From positions 31,668 through 95,667 of the forward strand of contig CAAGJQ010000089.1 of assembly GCA_900770295.1 (NCBI GenBank): DNA of 64,000 nucleotides. Direction: 5' to 3'. The position numbers and the translations under genes were made by a program. This DNA is from an uncultured Oscillibacter sp. Its GTDB lineage: Bacteria; Bacillota; Clostridia; Oscillospirales; Oscillospiraceae. The notes below the pieces were generated by a model. The model did not search any database and had not been told where the DNA came from. It saw only the letters and a program-made list of their open reading frames with translations. The number at the start of each line of letters is the position of its first letter. Positions within the stretch are counted from its first letter, which is position 1. Shown in pieces: positions 6,962 through 11,893 of the stretch.

Positions 6962-7834
6962 TTAAATGATAGCCTCCACGTAGCTTCTGGCGTCAAAGGG
7001 GCGCAGGTCGTCGATGCCCTCGCCCACGCCGGCGAACTTCACGGGCACGCCCAGTTCCTTGGCGATGGCAATGACGATGCCGCCCTTGGCGGTGCCGTCC
7101 AGCTTGGTGAGGACAATGCCGGTGAGGCCGGCGGTCTCCTTGAACTGCCGGGCCTGGATCAGGCCGTTCTGGCCGGTGGTGGCGTCCAGCACCAGCAGCG
7201 TCTCCCGGGCGGCGCCGGGGCACTCCCGGTCGATGATCTTGGAGAGCTTTGCCAGTTCCGCCATCAGGTTGGCCTTGTTGTGGAGGCGGCCGGCGGTATC
7301 GCACAGCACCACGTCCACGCCCCGGGCCTTGGCGGCCTGGAGGGCGTCGAACAGCACGGCGCCGGGGTCCGCGCCCTCATGCTGGCGGACCAGCTCGCAG
7401 CCCGCCCGCTCCGACCAGATCTGGAGTTGGTCGGCGGCGGCGGCCCGGAAGGTGTCCGCCGCGCAGAACAGCACCCGCTTGCCCTCGCTTTTCAGCTGAT
7501 TGCCCAGCTTGCCGATGGACGTGGTCTTGCCCACGCCGTTGACGCCGATGAACAGCACCACGCTGGGCTGGGTGGAGATGTCCAGGGCGGTGTCGCCCAC
7601 GTCCATCATCTCCACCAGAACGTCCCGGAGGGCGGCCTTGACCTCCTCCTGGTCGCGGAGCTTCTCCTTGCGGACACGGGTCCGCAGCTGTTCCACCGCC
7701 TCCAGAGCGGTGTCCATGCCCAGGTCCGCCAGGATCAGAGTCTCCTCCAGCTCCTCGAAGAACGCCTCGTCGGCCTCGGAAAAGCCGGAGAACAGGTTGG
7801 TGGTGATTTTTTTCAGTTTGTCAAAAAAGCCCAT
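6962..7834 (-). CDS. ftsY: SRP receptor GTPase
   Basis: GVNGVGKTT, DTFRAAA, DTAGR, TKLDGTAKGG. Confidence 0.97.
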   Translation of the reverse strand: MGFFDKLKKITTNLFSGFSEADEAFFEELEETLILADLGMDTALEAVEQLRTRVRKEKLRDQEEVKAALRDVLVEMMDVGDTALDISTQPSVVLFIGVNGVGKTTSIGKLGNQLKSEGKRVLFCAADTFRAAAADQLQIWSERAGCELVRQHEGADPGAVLFDALQAAKARGVDVVLCDTAGRLHNKANLMAELAKLSKIIDRECPGAARETLLVLDATTGQNGLIQARQFKETAGLTGIVLTKLDGTAKGGIVIAIAKELGVPVKFAGVGEGIDDLRPFDARSYVEAII

Positions 7835-7843
7835 AGTCTCCTC

Positions 7844-8104
7844 CTAAAATAAGGAATTTGAACGGGGAGTCTTGTTCCAGTCATATGCTCTGCCGCAGTG
7901 CTTGCAGTGACTTCCGGGGGAACGCCCCAGCGGGGCGCCGCACTCCGGGCAGCGGCACATACCATAATAAACCAGCAGTCCCACAACCAGCGGCACAAGG
8001 CCGATGGCCATCAGCACTCCTATGCCAAAGTAGCCGATAACCGCCAGCAAAGCCCCCAGCACCATCAACACGATACTGAGGGTCAGCCATTTTTTCAGGC
8101 TCAC
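7844..8104 (-). CDS. small membrane protein with a C-terminal zinc ribbon
   Basis: Two TM segments, then CPECG...CKHCG; GGGGGA RBS before GTG. Confidence 0.75.
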   Translation of the reverse strand: MSLKKWLTLSIVLMVLGALLAVIGYFGIGVLMAIGLVPLVVGLLVYYGMCRCPECGAPLGRSPGSHCKHCGRAYDWNKTPRSNSLF

Positions 8105-8116
8105 GAGCAGTCCCCC

Positions 8117-8191
8117 TTACTTGATCTTCAGTTCCTTGGCCATGTCGTTCAGATTAATGGTCAGTATCTTGCTGACGCCCTGCTCCTGCAT
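8117..8191 (-). repeat. downstream copy of the last 25 codons of smc (direct repeat of 8327-8401)
   Basis: 70/75 identical, offset 210 bp (in frame); all five differences synonymous. Confidence 0.97.
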
Positions 8192-8326
8192 ATCGTCGTC
8201 GCAAAGTCCGCTAAGCTCCGTTTCCGCCTTGCGGTGAAAACTGCGCCCGCTCCCTTGCTCCTCCTCTTCCCACCGTGACCGCTTCGCCGGGTCACGGCGG
8301 GAGCCCTGTTGGGGCGTCACCATGCC
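8192..8326 (-). repeat. structured 114-nt module plus a 13-bp inverted repeat of the smc duplication junction
   Basis: 8313-8325 is the reverse complement of 8398-8410; module 8193-8306 is colinear with 41333-41446. Confidence 0.9.
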
Positions 8327-11300
8327 CTATTTGATCTTCAATTCCTTGGCCATGTCGTTCAGATTGATGGTCAGTATCTTACTGACGCCCTGCTCCTGCA
8401 TGGTGACGCCGTACAGCACGTCGGCCTCCTCCATGGTGCCCCGGCGGTGGGTGATGACGATGAACTGCGTCCGGCCCGCCAGGGTCCGCATGTAGCGGGC
8501 CACCCGGATGACGTTGGGCTCGTCCAGGGCGGCCTCGATCTCATCCATGACGCAGAAGGGCGTGGGGTGGACCTTCAAAATGGCGAAGTACAGAGCGATG
8601 GCCACGAAGGCCTTCTCGCCGCCGGAGAGGAGGGAGATGGTCTTTAAGGTCTTTCCGGGCGGCTGGGCCTTGATCTCGATGCCGCAGCCCAGAATGTCGC
8701 TCTCGTCCTCCAGCTCCAGCTTGGCCTGGCCCCCGCCGAAGAGGTCCGTGAAGGTGGTCTGGAAGCTCTCGTTGATGAGCTTGAACTGCTCCGCGAAGAT
8801 GGCGGTCATCTGGTTGGTGATCTCCTCGATGATGCCGCTGAGCTCCTCCTTGGCCTTTTCCACGTCGTCGCGCTGGTCCGTCAGATAGGTGTAGCGGCCG
8901 TTGACCCGGTCGAACTCCTCGATAGCGCCGATGTTGATGGCTCCAAGGGCGGAGATGTCCCGTTTCAGCTCTCCGATGCGGCGGGTGGCCTTGGGGATGC
9001 TCTCCAGCTCGATGCGCTGGGCCTGAGCATCCGTGTGGCTGAGCTCGTAGGTCTCCCACAGCCGGTCCAGGATCTGCTTTTCCTCCATGGCGGAGGTGGA
9101 GATCTTGTTCTCCAGCTTTGCCGCCGCCATCTGCAGATTCTGGAAGTTCTCGTTCAGTTCCTTGCTGGCGCGGTTTTTGGCAGTGCGCTCCGCCTCCAGG
9201 GCGATCTTCTCCTCGTTCAGCGCCGTCAGCCGGTCCCGGAAGGTCTGGCCCTGGGCAGAGAGGGTTTCCAGCTCCGTTTTCCGCCGGGCGATCTCTCCGC
9301 TGGCCTCGTCGATGTTCCGCTGATAGGTCCGGACCGTCTCCTCCTTCTGGTCCCGGTCCCCGGCCAAACTCTCCGCCAGCTGCCGCAGGTCGGCGGCACG
9401 GCGGACGGTGGACTCCCGCTCGGCGGTCAGAGCCGCCAGATCGGACTTCTTTCCGCTGATCTCTTCCGTCAGAGCCCCGGACTGGGCCAGCAGCTCTGAC
9501 TGGCCGGAGAGGGCCTCTTCGGCCTTCGCCCGCAGGCTCTCCGCCAGACGCTCCTGCCCGGCGATCTGTTTTTCCGCCTCCGCGGCCCGCTGCCCGTTGT
9601 CCTTCAGGCGGCCGGTCAGGCTCTCCCACTCGCCCTCCAGATTTTCCAGATTCTCCCGCAGGGAGCGCAGCAAAATGTCAAAGTGGTTCTTCGTACCCTC
9701 CAGCCGCAAAACCTCGTCCTCGGCCTGGCGGCGCTGGCTCTCCGCCGTCTCCAGCTCGTACTGGGCGGCGGCCAGTTCCCGGTTCGCCGCCTCCTCCGCA
9801 GCCTGGGCGGCGGACAGCTTTTCATGCATGGCGCTGGCCCGGCCGTTCAGCTTTTCCAGCTCGGCGGCGCGGCTCAGCACACCGGCGGACCGGCTGGTGG
9901 AGCCGCCGGTCATGGAGCCGCCCCGGTTGATGACCTGCCCGTCCAGCGTCACGATGCGGAAGGCGTTGCGGTACTTCCGGGCCATGGCGATGCCGCAGTC
10001 CATGTCCTCCACGATGACCGTCCGGCCCAGGAGGTTCTGGAAGATATTCGTATAGCGGGCATCAAACTTCACCAGGCGGGAGGCGATGCCCACGAAACCG
10101 AATTCATTTTCCACGCCGGGCTGGCGCAGCTCGTCGCCCCGGATGGCGGTCAGCGGCAGGAAGGTGGCGCGGCCGCCGTCCCGCTGTTTCAGGAAGTTGA
10201 TGGCCGCCTTGGCGTCCTCCTCCCGGTCCACCACGATGTTCTGCAATCCCGCGCCCAGGGCGATCTCAATGGCCAGAGACACCTGCTGGTCGGTCTTCAT
10301 CAGATTCGCCACCGGGCCGTGGATGCCCCGGAGACTATTCTTTGCCTGCATGACCGTCTTGACGGCCTTGGAGAAGCCCTCGTACTCCTTCTCCATCTCC
10401 GTCAGAAGGCGGATGCGGTTGTCCAGCGCGCCCACGTCCATGGTCAGCTGGACCCGGTGTTCCGACGCGGCGGCGGCTTTCTTCTTCCGCTCCTCCATCC
10501 GCAGGCTGTGGCCCGCGATGATGTTGGACACCGCCTCCGCCTCGTCCCGGGCATCCTCCAGAGCGCGGCGGTTGGCCCTGGCCTCCTTCTCGGATTCCGC
10601 CAGTTGGGCCTCGGCGGCGGCTTTTTCCTGTTCAACGGCGGCTTTCCGCTCCTCGATCTGTCCGTTTTCAGCGGCGATGGCAGCGACTTCCGCCCGCGCG
10701 TCCGCCGCAGCGGCCACGGCCATGGCCTCCTGGCCCCGCAGGGCCTCCGCCTGGGACTGGGCGCCGCCGGCCTGGGCCGCGGCCTCCCGTGCCTGCTCCA
10801 GCAGTCCATCCAGCGCGTGATTCAGCGTCTCGATCTCTCCGTCGATCTCCGCGATGCGGCGCTCCAGTTCCTCCGCCTGCTTCTCCAGGCCTCCGGCGCG
10901 GCTGTCCGTCTCCTCCAGCTCCGTCCGGGCCCGGTCGATGTTCTCCTGATTGTGGGTGATCGTACTCTCCAGCACGGCGATGGCGGACTCCTGCTCCTTC
11001 ACCCGGCCGTCCAGCTCGGCGGCCTCGGCGCGGATGCGCTCCGCCTCCATGTCCTTCTCCTGCATCCGAAGACCGTACTGCTCATCCTCGGCGTACAGGG
11101 CGTCAATTTGGGCCTTGGCCTCGTCCCGGGCGGCCTCGGCGGCGGCGCAGTCCGCCTTCAGCTTCTGGACGCTGGCTTTCAGGGCATCCAGATTCTCCAG
11201 CCACACGGAGATCTCCAACAGGCGCAGCTCGTCCCGCAGGACCAGGAACTTTTTGGCCTTCTCCGCCTGGTCCCGCAGGGGTTCCACCTGCAATTCCAGT

Positions 11301-11893
11301 TCGGATATCTTGTCGTTGATGCGGACCAGGTTCTCCTCCGTCCGCTCCAGCTTCCGCTCCGACTCCTCTTTCCGGTGGCGGAACTTGGAGATGCCGGCGG
11401 CCTCCTCGAAAATCTCCCGGCGCTCGCCGCTCTTGGCGGACAAAATCTCGTCGATCTTGCCCTGGCCGATGATGGAGTAGCCCTCCCGGCCCATGCCGGT
11501 GTCCATGAACAGCTCCGTCACGTCCTTCAATCGGACGGACTGCCGGTTGATGTAGTATTCGCTCTCGCCGCTGCGGTAATAGCGGCGGGTGACGGAGACC
11601 TCCGCCTCCTCCATGGTGGGGAAGATGTGCTCCGTGTTGTCGATTACCAGCGTCACCTGGGCAAAGCCCACCTGGGCCCGCTTCGCCGTGCCGCCGAAGA
11701 TGACGTCCTCCATCTTCGCGCCTCGGAGGCTCTTACTGCTCTGCTCACCCATGACCCAGCGGATGGCGTCGGAAATATTGGACTTGCCGGAGCCGTTGGG
11801 GCCCACGATGGCGGTGATATCCTCGCCGAAGTTCAGGACCGTCTTATCGGGGAAGGACTTGAATCCCTGGATCTCCAATGCTTTTAAGTACAC
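8327..11893 (-). CDS. smc: chromosome segregation protein SMC
   Basis: GFKSF, GPNGSGKSN, coiled coils, hinge GRATFLP..GSMTGG, LSGGEK, DEIEAALD. Confidence 0.98.
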   Translation of the reverse strand: MYLKALEIQGFKSFPDKTVLNFGEDITAIVGPNGSGKSNISDAIRWVMGEQSSKSLRGAKMEDVIFGGTAKRAQVGFAQVTLVIDNTEHIFPTMEEAEVSVTRRYYRSGESEYYINRQSVRLKDVTELFMDTGMGREGYSIIGQGKIDEILSAKSGERREIFEEAAGISKFRHRKEESERKLERTEENLVRINDKISELELQVEPLRDQAEKAKKFLVLRDELRLLEISVWLENLDALKASVQKLKADCAAAEAARDEAKAQIDALYAEDEQYGLRMQEKDMEAERIRAEAAELDGRVKEQESAIAVLESTITHNQENIDRARTELEETDSRAGGLEKQAEELERRIAEIDGEIETLNHALDGLLEQAREAAAQAGGAQSQAEALRGQEAMAVAAAADARAEVAAIAAENGQIEERKAAVEQEKAAAEAQLAESEKEARANRRALEDARDEAEAVSNIIAGHSLRMEERKKKAAAASEHRVQLTMDVGALDNRIRLLTEMEKEYEGFSKAVKTVMQAKNSLRGIHGPVANLMKTDQQVSLAIEIALGAGLQNIVVDREEDAKAAINFLKQRDGGRATFLPLTAIRGDELRQPGVENEFGFVGIASRLVKFDARYTNIFQNLLGRTVIVEDMDCGIAMARKYRNAFRIVTLDGQVINRGGSMTGGSTSRSAGVLSRAAELEKLNGRASAMHEKLSAAQAAEEAANRELAAAQYELETAESQRRQAEDEVLRLEGTKNHFDILLRSLRENLENLEGEWESLTGRLKDNGQRAAEAEKQIAGQERLAESLRAKAEEALSGQSELLAQSGALTEEISGKKSDLAALTAERESTVRRAADLRQLAESLAGDRDQKEETVRTYQRNIDEASGEIARRKTELETLSAQGQTFRDRLTALNEEKIALEAERTAKNRASKELNENFQNLQMAAAKLENKISTSAMEEKQILDRLWETYELSHTDAQAQRIELESIPKATRRIGELKRDISALGAINIGAIEEFDRVNGRYTYLTDQRDDVEKAKEELSGIIEEITNQMTAIFAEQFKLINESFQTTFTDLFGGGQAKLELEDESDILGCGIEIKAQPPGKTLKTISLLSGGEKAFVAIALYFAILKVHPTPFCVMDEIEAALDEPNVIRVARYMRTLAGRTQFIVITHRRGTMEEADVLYGVTMQEQGVSKILTINLNDMAKELKIK

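Follow-up and report, generated by a model that had tools for sequence, protein, structure and literature searches.

A folded 114-nt repeat within core gene ends of gut Oscillospiraceae, and a spare smc end that differs from the working one at silent sites

The doubled 3' end of smc described here is one instance of a general pattern, in which an undescribed, folded 114-nt repeat (which we call E) is found within the ends of core genes of gut Oscillospiraceae, the genes hit being those for SMC, flagellin, sigma-70, PGK, IlvC, a tRNA synthetase and SpoVA. The instance from which we start lies in a window of 64,000 nt from an uncultured Oscillibacter sp. (the window is the whole stretch of DNA that was analysed, and coordinates are positions in it). 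The smc reading frame ends there in one copy of its last 24 codons (copy 1) and, beyond an insert containing E, a second copy of the same codons (copy 2) adjoins the next gene. We lean, if not by much, towards an explanation in which the insertion of E is reversible and the copies recombine, both persisting as a filled gene-end duplication from which missense changes are purged on either side. The features of the locus are as follows.

8327..11893, minus strand: smc coding sequence from the ORF list, 1188 aa, ending in copy 1 (Pfam SMC_N 2e-74 over residues 2-1172, SMC_hinge 5.8e-32)
8398..8410, minus strand: X, 13 nt of smc, GGCGTCACCATGC, the upstream boundary of the duplication
8327..8401, minus strand: copy 1, the working 3' end of smc, 24 codons and TAG, contiguous with the smc ORF
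8192..8326, minus strand: the 135-nt insert between the copies, made of a linker with X', the E core and a 2-nt gap
8313..8325, minus strand: X', an inverted copy of X, GCATGGTGACGCC, between copy 1 and the E core
8194..8307, minus strand: E core, 114 nt, a member of a dispersed structured repeat family (32-copy alignment, consensus structure)
8117..8191, minus strand: copy 2, the spare smc end, 24 codons and TAA, adjoining the ribosome-binding site and GTG of the next gene
8117..8323, minus strand: a mechanically called 68-aa ORF, from an ATG one codon past the smc stop through E into copy 2
7844..8104, minus strand: downstream 86-aa ORF with a hydrophobic N-terminal half and two Cys-x-x-Cys pairs
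6962..7834, minus strand: ftsY-like SRP-receptor GTPase (Pfam SRP54 1.1e-74, SRP54_N 3.3e-13)

The two copies (8401-8327 and 8191-8117) are 75-nt direct repeats placed 210 nt apart, which the repeat search lengthens to a pair of 92 nt with 87% identity. Both translate to the same 24 residues, MQEQGVSKILTINLNDMAKELKIK, followed by a stop, and the same five silent differences that a preliminary description of this DNA had listed (AGT/AGC, ATC/ATT, TTG/CTG, AAA/AAG and TAG/TAA) were found again; the span of 8117-8410 given there covers the feature. The SMC_N profile of Pfam terminates within copy 1, which is itself bracketed by the 13-nt inverted repeat of X (8398-8410) and X' (8313-8325). The longest inverted match here, scored at 12 nt, was reached by none of 491 control windows, and in two relatives (G161 and G035) a change in X is mirrored in X'. 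The RNA fold of the 135-nt insert is calculated at -62.2 kcal/mol (z = -3.81). Downstream of copy 2 comes GGGGGACTGCTC and then the GTG of the 86-aa ORF, so that copy 2 does adjoin a ribosome-binding site and start codon, as had been noted earlier. This ORF (7844..8104) belongs to no Pfam family, and the slot between smc and ftsY is occupied by differing small genes from species to species. In most relatives the insert is missing and the smc stop leads directly into the downstream DNA; in one of them, the empty-site relative G059, the equivalent of copy 2 is the sole smc end.

Twenty of 165 genomes of the genus match the locus at an E-value <= 1e-40 and 15 of these hold both copies. The filled arrangement is thus present in at least 15 of the 165 species, including a closed one-contig genome (G085), and an independent metagenome contig has the same structure (a metagenome scan for the start of the downstream gene gave six loci, five of them unrelated chance matches). 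This excludes the assembly duplication against which the preliminary description had argued. The genome is fragmented into 167 contigs and 3.9% contaminated, and the copies resemble two alleles, but with the structure recurring in at least 15 species assemblies, and a spacer that is unique sequence with its own conserved fold, an artefact of assembly or of strain mixture has a practically negligible probability. The smc insertion is old and has been inherited with smc, since E co-diverges with it: the distance between E sequences tracks that of the 900 nt of upstream smc (Mantel r = 0.52, matched by 5 of 5000 permutations; mean distances 0.208 for E and 0.185 for upstream smc). Within species the smc copies differ at 0-6 of 75 nt, while amino-acid replacements between species show up in both copies, i.e. 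the copies evolve in concert.

The E core is GC-rich and folded, as established from the alignment of 32 copies. In the consensus structure 96.4% of cells are paired, against 40-46% with the partners slid; the covariation score was reached by none of 500 shuffles, compensatory changes are found at 14 covarying pairs and conserved G.U pairs assign the fold to the smc-sense strand. There is a conserved AGGAGG linker, and helix P2 encloses 60 nt between this linker and the 3' tail. The search across the genus returned many matches to the insert portion of the query (positions 391-508), which on inspection of their flanks proved to be a dispersed repeat, with many copies per genome in relatives. 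E is present in 75 of 301 sampled Oscillospiraceae genomes and in 49 of 134 genera. Rfam gave no match at an E-value <= 1 over four E-holding loci, and only chance-level ones (E-values 0.09-8.4, far under gathering scores) at window positions 7800-8700. A repeat search of positions 7000-9500 found no terminal inverted repeats joining the insert ends; the consensus ends, GGGGYCCCC... and ...GACTTTGCGACGACG, are not complementary, and the inner helices are hairpins and not terminal repeats. E has no ORF of its own. An autonomous partner between the paired E copies of one genome (G048) was considered and rejected, as the segment of ~700 nt there holds only overlapping, spurious-looking GC-rich ORFs. 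In G048, E has expanded recently, to copies that are 95-96% identical. The ORF context of 43 E copies, taken from a simple ORF finder, is uninformative because most frames are open in GC-rich DNA; in G019, E is positioned in frame within an ORF. A literature search on the conserved strings of E found no paper, and the matches listed for one on repeats in Oscillospiraceae, Ruminococcaceae or Faecalibacterium were all either a review of MITEs in general or microbiome studies with no bearing on E. E also disrupts assemblies: in G048, G055 and G036 contigs end at E copies, and in G059 next to the smc locus.

At other housekeeping genes E shows a signature in two parts, a direct duplication of 30-84 nt of target that adjoins the 3' end of E, together with 8-15 nt in which the upstream boundary of this duplication is repeated in inverted orientation. 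The genes so interrupted encode flagellin, IlvC, enoyl-CoA hydratase, SMC, a class II tRNA synthetase, PGK, sigma-70 and a translational GTPase. At each locus (smc, SpoVAC/AEB, flagellin, IlvC, PGK, sigma-70 and others) it is the local target that is duplicated, over lengths that by locus are 30, 36, 44-52, 47, 54, 66-67, 75-81 and 84 nt, and the inverted copy exceeds every control window in 9 of the 11 testable E copies. Direct repeats flank 15 of 43 E copies from other genera, none being detectable for the other 28. A long flanking repeat is absent from 19 of the 26 E copies sampled in the genus, and this we count against recombination as the explanation.

Differences between working and spare ends are overwhelmingly silent. 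At smc, 34 codon differences are silent and 2 missense (14 species); the SpoVAC/AEB locus has 14 silent and 4 missense, eight other gene-end loci have 14 silent, no missense and one nonsense, and all loci together come to about 71 silent, 7 missense and 1 nonsense codon changes. If copy 2 were neutral, the expected missense share would be 0.59-0.69, for which the observed 2 of 36 has P <= 2e-11, or P <= 4e-5 with the count halved for shared ancestry, and about ten independent loci show the silent bias. The data reject neutral decay of the spare copy, in keeping with the earlier remark that a dead duplicate should gain missense changes. Could copy 2 still be a neutral relic, alike only via gene conversion from copy 1 and silent-only by chance or youth? 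The concerted evolution is clear, and some sites do decay (G035, where E is mostly deleted, G137, and flagellin L202 with a nonsense change), while G015 has an extra codon and G141 an in-frame truncation. However, the missense count rejects this model, the bias is found at about ten loci and the insertion is old, making such a relic very improbable; the decay is counted against recombination as well. By our own reasoning, simple gene conversion with a neutral copy 2 would itself give a missense share of roughly half or more, and therefore any recombination cycling behind the silent-only pattern would have to be frequent.

A filled (L095) and an empty (G059) allele of one lineage form a pair that bears directly on recombination. 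Their flanks are identical at 399/399 and 744/745 positions, and the G059 smc end consists of codons 1-23 of L095 copy 1 joined to codon 24 and the stop of copy 2. G059 contigs break, with a 55-nt overlap, precisely where two allele paths would merge. Judged by its sequence, the empty G059 allele looks like the product of a crossover between the copies. Against recombination we count that just one such pair was found, that the empty allele is almost entirely of copy 1 type and that no case was found of copy 2-type sequence serving as the working end. The L095 copies differ by 8 silent and 0 missense codon changes; its copy 2 has about seven silent changes absent from both its own copy 1 and G059, with no missense, and the nearest working ends elsewhere differ from it at 5 of 75 positions (best genus matches 93%), a pattern that looks like direct selection on copy 2 and not recent import. 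Copy 2 had also been taken for the ancestral end, which does not hold, as in comparison with G059 each copy mixes ancestral and derived states. A consistent GC bias of copy 2 was rejected too: a hand tally gave ~17 sites GC-richer against 22 AT-richer, with no direction.

The proposal that one end was imported from a related allele has fared unevenly. One footprint speaks for it, a clustered AGT/TCC allele switch with an adjacent change in copy 2 of G150, but no working end elsewhere is nearly identical to any copy 2, and with no clearly closer working end in other species among 67 ends, descent of copy 2 from a sampled working allele was rejected. The likeness to attL/attR drawn earlier is apt insofar as repeats flank an inserted element and filled and empty alleles with identical flanks exist. 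It is nonetheless rather improbable, in our estimate, that the locus is the remnant of a classical integrative element, which would have arrived by a site-specific recombinase with attL/attR and an imported smc end and lost its cargo down to 135 bp. Direct repeats of a gene 3' end around foreign DNA are the hallmark of such elements, the G150 switch would suit one, and the L095 and G000 inserts are alike at all but 2 of 135 positions, against identities of 89% in the flanking smc and 91% in the downstream DNA, which suggests horizontal movement of the insert. Against this, the 114-nt core is dispersed at many unrelated loci, each with its own target duplication and inverted boundary copy, no trace of an integrase or cargo is found in or beside the insert, the species' own amino-acid replacements are present in both copies, and neither copy is consistently foreign.

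The missense deficit is also what direct selection on a translated peptide predicts, whether copy 2 were read as a 24-residue peptide from its own ATG, as the tail of an ORF through E, or by read-through of the smc stop; for the first of these E would be a ribosome-binding cassette, with helix P2 bringing AGGAGG beside the ATG. The ATG is kept in all intact smc sites of the genus, the junction of E with copy 2 holds one frame there (..SGLCDD..MQEQ), the AGGAGG linker and the reach of P2 over 60 nt to the 3' tail would fit, E adjoins the ATG of dnaJ in G014, and copy 2 has decayed where E is mostly deleted (G035). In the genome studied here the spacer keeps copy 2 in the smc frame (TAG GGC ATG...), but relatives do not conserve this: spacer length modulo 3 is 0, 1 or 2 among species, no start codon precedes copy 2 in its frame in 6 of 16 species, and just 5 of 16 have an ORF that begins at the equivalent or a nearby ATG and enters copy 2, for which reason the 68-aa ORF (8117..8323) is probably not a gene. 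It belongs to no Pfam family, and with its variable frame and often absent start a conserved small protein was rejected, as was the idea that smc continues into copy 2 by read-through or fusion, since only some species have the spacing in frame. The 5' half of E is read in differing frames among species, the IlvC and sigma-70 copy 2 segments are out of the E frame and without a start, and in another genus the smc copy 2 has no ATG and does not share the E frame, although all its differences are silent. Selection on copy 2 translated in place therefore seems improbable to us. Two earlier suggestions are likewise not supported: with the insert present there is no sign of smc joined to copy 2 as one of two alternative 3' ends, and translation of both ends under selection does not find general support.

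To return to reversible insertion with recombination, we propose the following course of events. The 135-nt insert would have been placed 24 codons before the original smc end, in an event that also doubled the 75-81 nt of target lying between the insertion point and a position just beyond the stop codon, and left the 13-nt inverted copy X' ahead of the E core. Since the target would be duplicated on insertion, smc would end normally in copy 1 and copy 2 would be the spare, still abutting the next gene. The copies would then be kept alike by recombining with each other; a crossover between them would excise the insert exactly, leaving a working end built of parts of both, and exchange with empty or filled alleles would reshuffle them. 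In this way stretches of either copy may recurrently act as the working end of an essential gene, so that missense changes would be purged from both and only silent differences persist. That this cycling causes the silent-only pattern is what we infer from the data above; against it we count also that we know of no enzyme, circular form or transposition intermediate for E. The duplication and X' may have arisen through template switching during replication or repair, with a fold-back among the steps. Several schemes for the order X-A-X'-E-A (A being the duplicated end), by stepwise template switches or by transposition, were drawn on paper and rejected, none explaining every junction.

A broader proposal, which we put forward tentatively and consider on balance doubtful, is that E is a new small mobile element. 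Its insertion would copy the target as a 30-90-nt direct duplication from the E 3' end, with an 8-15-nt inverted copy of the far boundary at the 5' side, and it could thereby occupy the opening or closing 10-25 codons of genes that are essential and highly expressed while leaving them functional. Element and captured end would form a reversible, homology-guided cassette with both copies under purifying selection, by a mechanism unlike any described transposon, integrase or retroelement. The long rebuilt end with a short inverted boundary copy is a misfit with known transposition chemistry and points to an unknown route of insertion or repair. Spares free of missense changes imply that non-working duplicates can stay under effective purifying selection, and spare gene ends are liable to mislead gene callers, the calling of pseudogenes and scans of dN/dS. 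Gene-end copies may also be a natural system for gauging short-repeat recombination in uncultured gut bacteria.

Several known systems share parts of this picture. IS1634 and IS1549 are described as inserting with long target duplications of variable length (8-514 bp), direct repeats for which that source gives no accepted mechanism (PMC2266710). The duplications flanking E are likewise long and variable (30-84 nt). However, members of the IS1634 family are 1.5-2 kb long, with a DDE transposase and terminal inverted repeats, whereas E is ~114 nt without an ORF or terminal inverted repeats, covaries in an RNA-like fold and is accompanied by an inverted boundary copy of the target.

Target-site duplications of MITEs are short. 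In contrast to such short duplications of fixed length, the gene-end copies of E have 30-84 nt and other copies have none detectable. Prokaryotic MITEs and the RPEs of Rickettsia are described as under 500 bp, multi-copy, non-coding and dispersed, at times in frame within genes, and MITEs as usually AT-rich, with terminal inverted repeats of ~4-30 bp and flanking target-site duplications (PMC10969869). E is also under about 500 bp, non-coding, multi-copy and dispersed, but it is GC-rich and lacks terminal inverted repeats, and its duplications rebuild the gene end, while in-frame insertion of a MITE or RPE fuses the element into the protein.

At induced breaks in yeast, short (~5-34 bp) inverted copies of nearby sequence are reported to be inserted on repair (PMC11724301). 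X' resembles such fold-back templated insertions in being an 8-15-nt inverted copy of nearby target, but it occurs in bacteria, at many loci, and always with one captured element and a long duplication.

The smc locus, with its near-identical repeats, one of them the gene 3' end and the other just downstream, and its structured spacer, is also reminiscent of a DGR. In a DGR the variable repeat lies at the gene 3' end and the template repeat downstream, the differences are adenine-specific and a reverse transcriptase is nearby. The smc copies differ instead by T/C, C/T, T/C, A/G and G/A, not adenine-specific and all silent, and there is no reverse transcriptase among the annotated neighbours of the locus.

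In integrative elements with attL/attR, direct repeats of the target gene 3' end flank the insert, and recombination between the repeats restores a single end. E is similarly flanked by repeats of a gene 3' end, and the filled L095 and empty G059 form a corresponding pair. It differs in having only 135 nt between the repeats, with no recombinase and no cargo, its neighbours being smc, the 86-aa ORF and ftsY. Above all, attL/attR elements carry one fixed att site, whereas at some ten different genes the repeats around E stem from the respective local target.

The smc reading frame of the window ends in ...YGVTMQEQGVSKILTINLNDMAKELKIK-TAG, and its terminal 75 nt are repeated exactly 210 nt downstream with five changes, each silent or stop-to-stop, just as the preliminary description of a duplicated gene end had it. 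We call the working end copy 1 and the spare duplicate copy 2. The latter runs into GGGGGACTGCTC-GTG, where the next ORF starts, and the 135-nt spacer (the insert) leaves it in the smc frame in this genome, giving a mechanical 68-aa ORF. Copy 1 is bracketed by a perfect 13-nt inverted repeat with arms X and X':

8327..11893, minus strand: smc ORF, 1188 aa (Pfam SMC_N 2e-74, hinge 5.8e-32)
8398-8410, minus strand: X, smc sequence immediately upstream of the duplication
8313-8325, minus strand: X', immediately past the smc stop

Further downstream, the smc-ftsY gap (7844-8104, minus strand, and the equivalent slot in loci L010-L037) holds 0, 1 or 2 small ORFs whose products are hydrophobic in their N-terminal half and have two Cys-x-x-Cys pairs; these ORFs diverge strongly among species and match no Pfam family.

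In a search of 61 genus genomes most relatives match the window only to the smc stop; in five the match extends across spacer and copy 2, and the spacer by itself matches many other sites in many genomes. Inspection of 25 such sites defined a repeat family, E, whose core spans 114 nt (GGGGYCCCC-hairpin-GTGGGGAGAGGAGGAGCAAGGGAGC-variable hairpin-AGCGGACTTTGCGACGACG). Aligning 32 copies yields a three-part consensus fold: a 14-pair hairpin, an invariant helix GCAAGG/CUUUGC and the hairpin that it encloses, which varies in sequence while its pairing is preserved. Paired cells amount to 96.4%, against 40-46% when partners are slid, with compensatory changes at 14 pairs and a covariation reached by 0/500 shuffles. 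Since G.U pairs are conserved (columns 10:37, 56:112 and 78:92), the fold is assigned to the smc-sense strand; the window insert itself is predicted to fold at -62.2 kcal/mol (z = -3.81). E matches no Rfam family, and a literature search for its conserved strings found no occurrence. It is present in 75 of 301 sampled Oscillospiraceae genomes (49 of 134 genera), and the window genome, G000, has one additional copy, diverged and intergenic.

A weak 39-nt match to the 5' part of the insert (82%, E 8e-4) lies at G000:C135:35927-35965 (locus L104). E, alone or together with an 84-nt unit, forms tandem arrays at L055:1491-1774 (G034:C16), L196:505-814 (G233:C73) and L078/L079, and in G048 (L039, L040) copies are paired in inverted orientation ~700 nt apart. 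Many copies in G048 and G055 lie ~30 nt from contig ends, so E breaks assemblies. A second dispersed repeat, a ..GGACCGTGCACGGCCCGTTCTCTTTTTG-loop-CAAAAAGAGAATGGGGGGTGCAT hairpin, is found at L103:1045-1107 (G000:C145), past the smc gene in L015 and L029, and in the neighbourhood of many E copies (L039, L040, L046-L050); E is frequently adjacent to it or nested within its loop. At L054:3125-3227 (G019:C4) a long open frame contains E and continues through it in frame (..PSEAVAVGRGGARERAQFSPQGETEHSGLCD..), a case that resembles in-frame palindromic-element insertion. At L052:1513-1611 (G014:C28) the ATG of a dnaJ-like gene directly adjoins the E 3' end (MAEQKRDYYEVLGV...), and the junction lacks an ordinary ribosome-binding site, a hint that the AGGAGG stretch of E, drawn near by helix P2, may serve translation initiation.

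Since the window genome is assembled in 167 contigs, an artefact had to be excluded, and all 165 genus genomes were searched (20 matches at E <= 1e-40) and the sites read. Both copies are intact in 15 genomes (G000, G163, G087, G005, G150, G048, G015, G021, G158, G128, G055, G085, G036, G161 and G130), including G161, where copy 2 is partly masked, and G085, a single-contig genome. Copy 2 is decayed in G137 and G035 and shortened in frame in G141; the insert is reduced to its 5' part in G083, G149 and G075, and in G124 two matches lie 205 nt apart. The arrangement is real, not an assembly artefact. In G141 (L069, contig C9) an in-frame deletion between two CGACATG microhomologies has removed the first 48 nt of copy 2, and E adjoins ..ATGGCGAAGGAACTGAAGATCAAATAG. 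Immediately downstream of the smc stop of G035 (L021, contig C4) E is mostly deleted and copy 2 carries ~20 changes, mostly A/T to G/C, with ATG changed to GTG and the stop lost, an example of free decay of the spare in this GC-rich genus. Because pairwise distances of E (mean 0.208) follow those of the upstream 900 nt of smc (mean 0.185; Mantel r = 0.52, reached in 5/5000 permutations), the data fit a single old insertion inherited along with smc. Outside the genus, L216 carries a related insertion at smc.

The inverted boundary copy beats all same-locus control windows in 9 of the 11 testable E copies and is not significant in L189 (score reached by 71/167 controls) and L221 (4/166). It ends mostly 1-7 nt before the E core, and 56 nt before it in L224. 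The smc X is GGCATCACCATGC (Val to Ile) in L072 (G161), L021 (G035) and L067 (G128). In G161 and G035 this G-to-A change is mirrored by C-to-T in X' (..GGTGATGCC and ..GGGGATGCC, respectively), while the X' of G128 is truncated and has no compensating change. Such co-change points to either selection for X:X' pairing or template-directed correction.

The same architecture recurs in four species of the genus at a gene for a SpoVAC/SpoVAEB membrane protein (PF03862, 1e-40), where ~66 nt of the 3' end are duplicated, copy 2 adjoins the E 3' end, the core is preceded by an inverted copy, 13-15 nt long, of the upstream boundary and a short linker supplies the new stop. Its copies show 14 silent and 4 missense differences, three of the four missense at the boundary codon. 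Flanking direct repeats accompany 7 of the 26 genus E copies with usable flanks (one at smc, five entries from the four species that have the SpoVA locus, and a more distant 37-nt pair in G142) and are absent from the other 19. In other genera they flank 15 of 43 fetched copies, the right copy beginning <=6 nt from the E 3' end in ~11 of the 15. The genes that E interrupts there, as named by Pfam, are the C-terminal region of flagellin (orthologous in three genera), ketol-acid reductoisomerase, enoyl-CoA hydratase, SMC, a class II tRNA synthetase, phosphoglycerate kinase, a sigma-70 factor and a translational GTPase, which lies on the opposite strand and is interrupted at its 5' end. Where a gene 3' end is duplicated in these genera, the copies differ by 14 silent, no missense and one nonsense change, and at the GTPase locus by one silent and one missense.

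Could the two smc ends be alternatives, both translated, as had been proposed? The comparison among species does not support this. Spacer length modulo 3 is 0, 1 or 2; an ORF from the ATG of GCATGG or near it reads into copy 2 in 5/16 species, another 5/16 have a GTG inside E as the sole in-frame start, and 6/16 wholly lack one. The reading frame of the E 5' half also differs from species to species. Ideas of in-place translation fare poorly. Copy 2 might possibly be translated at the smc site of this genus; as the start is often missing and the frame out with E, such translation would not be general.

The copies of one species differ at 0-6 of 75 positions and share species-specific amino-acid replacements (..ELDIE, ..NMNDL..KIQ, SINL..KLS), and so evolve in concert. 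The codon changes that separate copy 1 from copy 2 were counted in 14 species, omitting the masked G161 and the decayed G137: 34 are silent and 2 missense, alongside 5 variants of the stop codon and a single inserted codon. With copy 2 neutral and copy 1 allowed silent changes only, the expected missense share is 59-69%; the 2 in 36 found reject this model (P <= 2e-11, or <= 4e-5 with the count halved for shared ancestry). Simple gene conversion would, by our own reasoning, give about half or more missense and cannot yield the observed ratio. Missense changes are strongly deficient at about ten loci.

A filled smc site, with insert and both copies, on metagenome contig L095 can be paired with the empty site of genome G059, to which it is identical at 399/399 positions upstream (contig C26) and 744/745 downstream (C131). 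The single end of G059 consists of L095 copy 1 codons 1-23, then the final codon of copy 2, its stop and downstream DNA, which is the product expected if the two copies cross over once, whichever the direction. The two contigs, C26 and C131, share an overlap of exactly 55 nt that starts at the base where the empty-allele and copy 2 paths would merge, and this suggests that the material behind the G059 assembly contained both alleles. The L095 copies differ at 8 codons and the stop, all silently. Its insert differs from that of G000 at 2/135 positions, with flanks 89-91% identical, and since the inserts are far more alike than the flanks, there are hints that the insert may move between lineages by recombination.

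The data show the anatomy, the family with its fold and spread, how old the smc insertion is, that the copies evolve in concert, a single filled/empty pair and the missense deficit. Beyond them, we propose that the long duplication would be what lets an insertion within the end of an essential gene survive, and that recombination between the copies, and with empty or filled alleles, may repeatedly return parts of each as the working end, which would leave both copies missense-free. Counting against this proposal are the single filled/empty pair found, the almost wholly copy 1 type of the empty allele, and L095 copy 2, whose roughly seven private changes are all silent, with the nearest working ends elsewhere only 93% identical. 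The earlier alternative of an attL/attR-like insertion with both copies under selection proves largely right, given the L095/G059 pair and the 34 silent against 2 missense differences. Among known systems, IS1634 and IS1549 make long target repeats of variable length (PMC2266710), and fold-back repair makes short inverted templated insertions (PMC11724301). Neither accounts for the whole E signature, and the finding leads to a family of elements not described before, whose insertion signature is unusual and reproducible.
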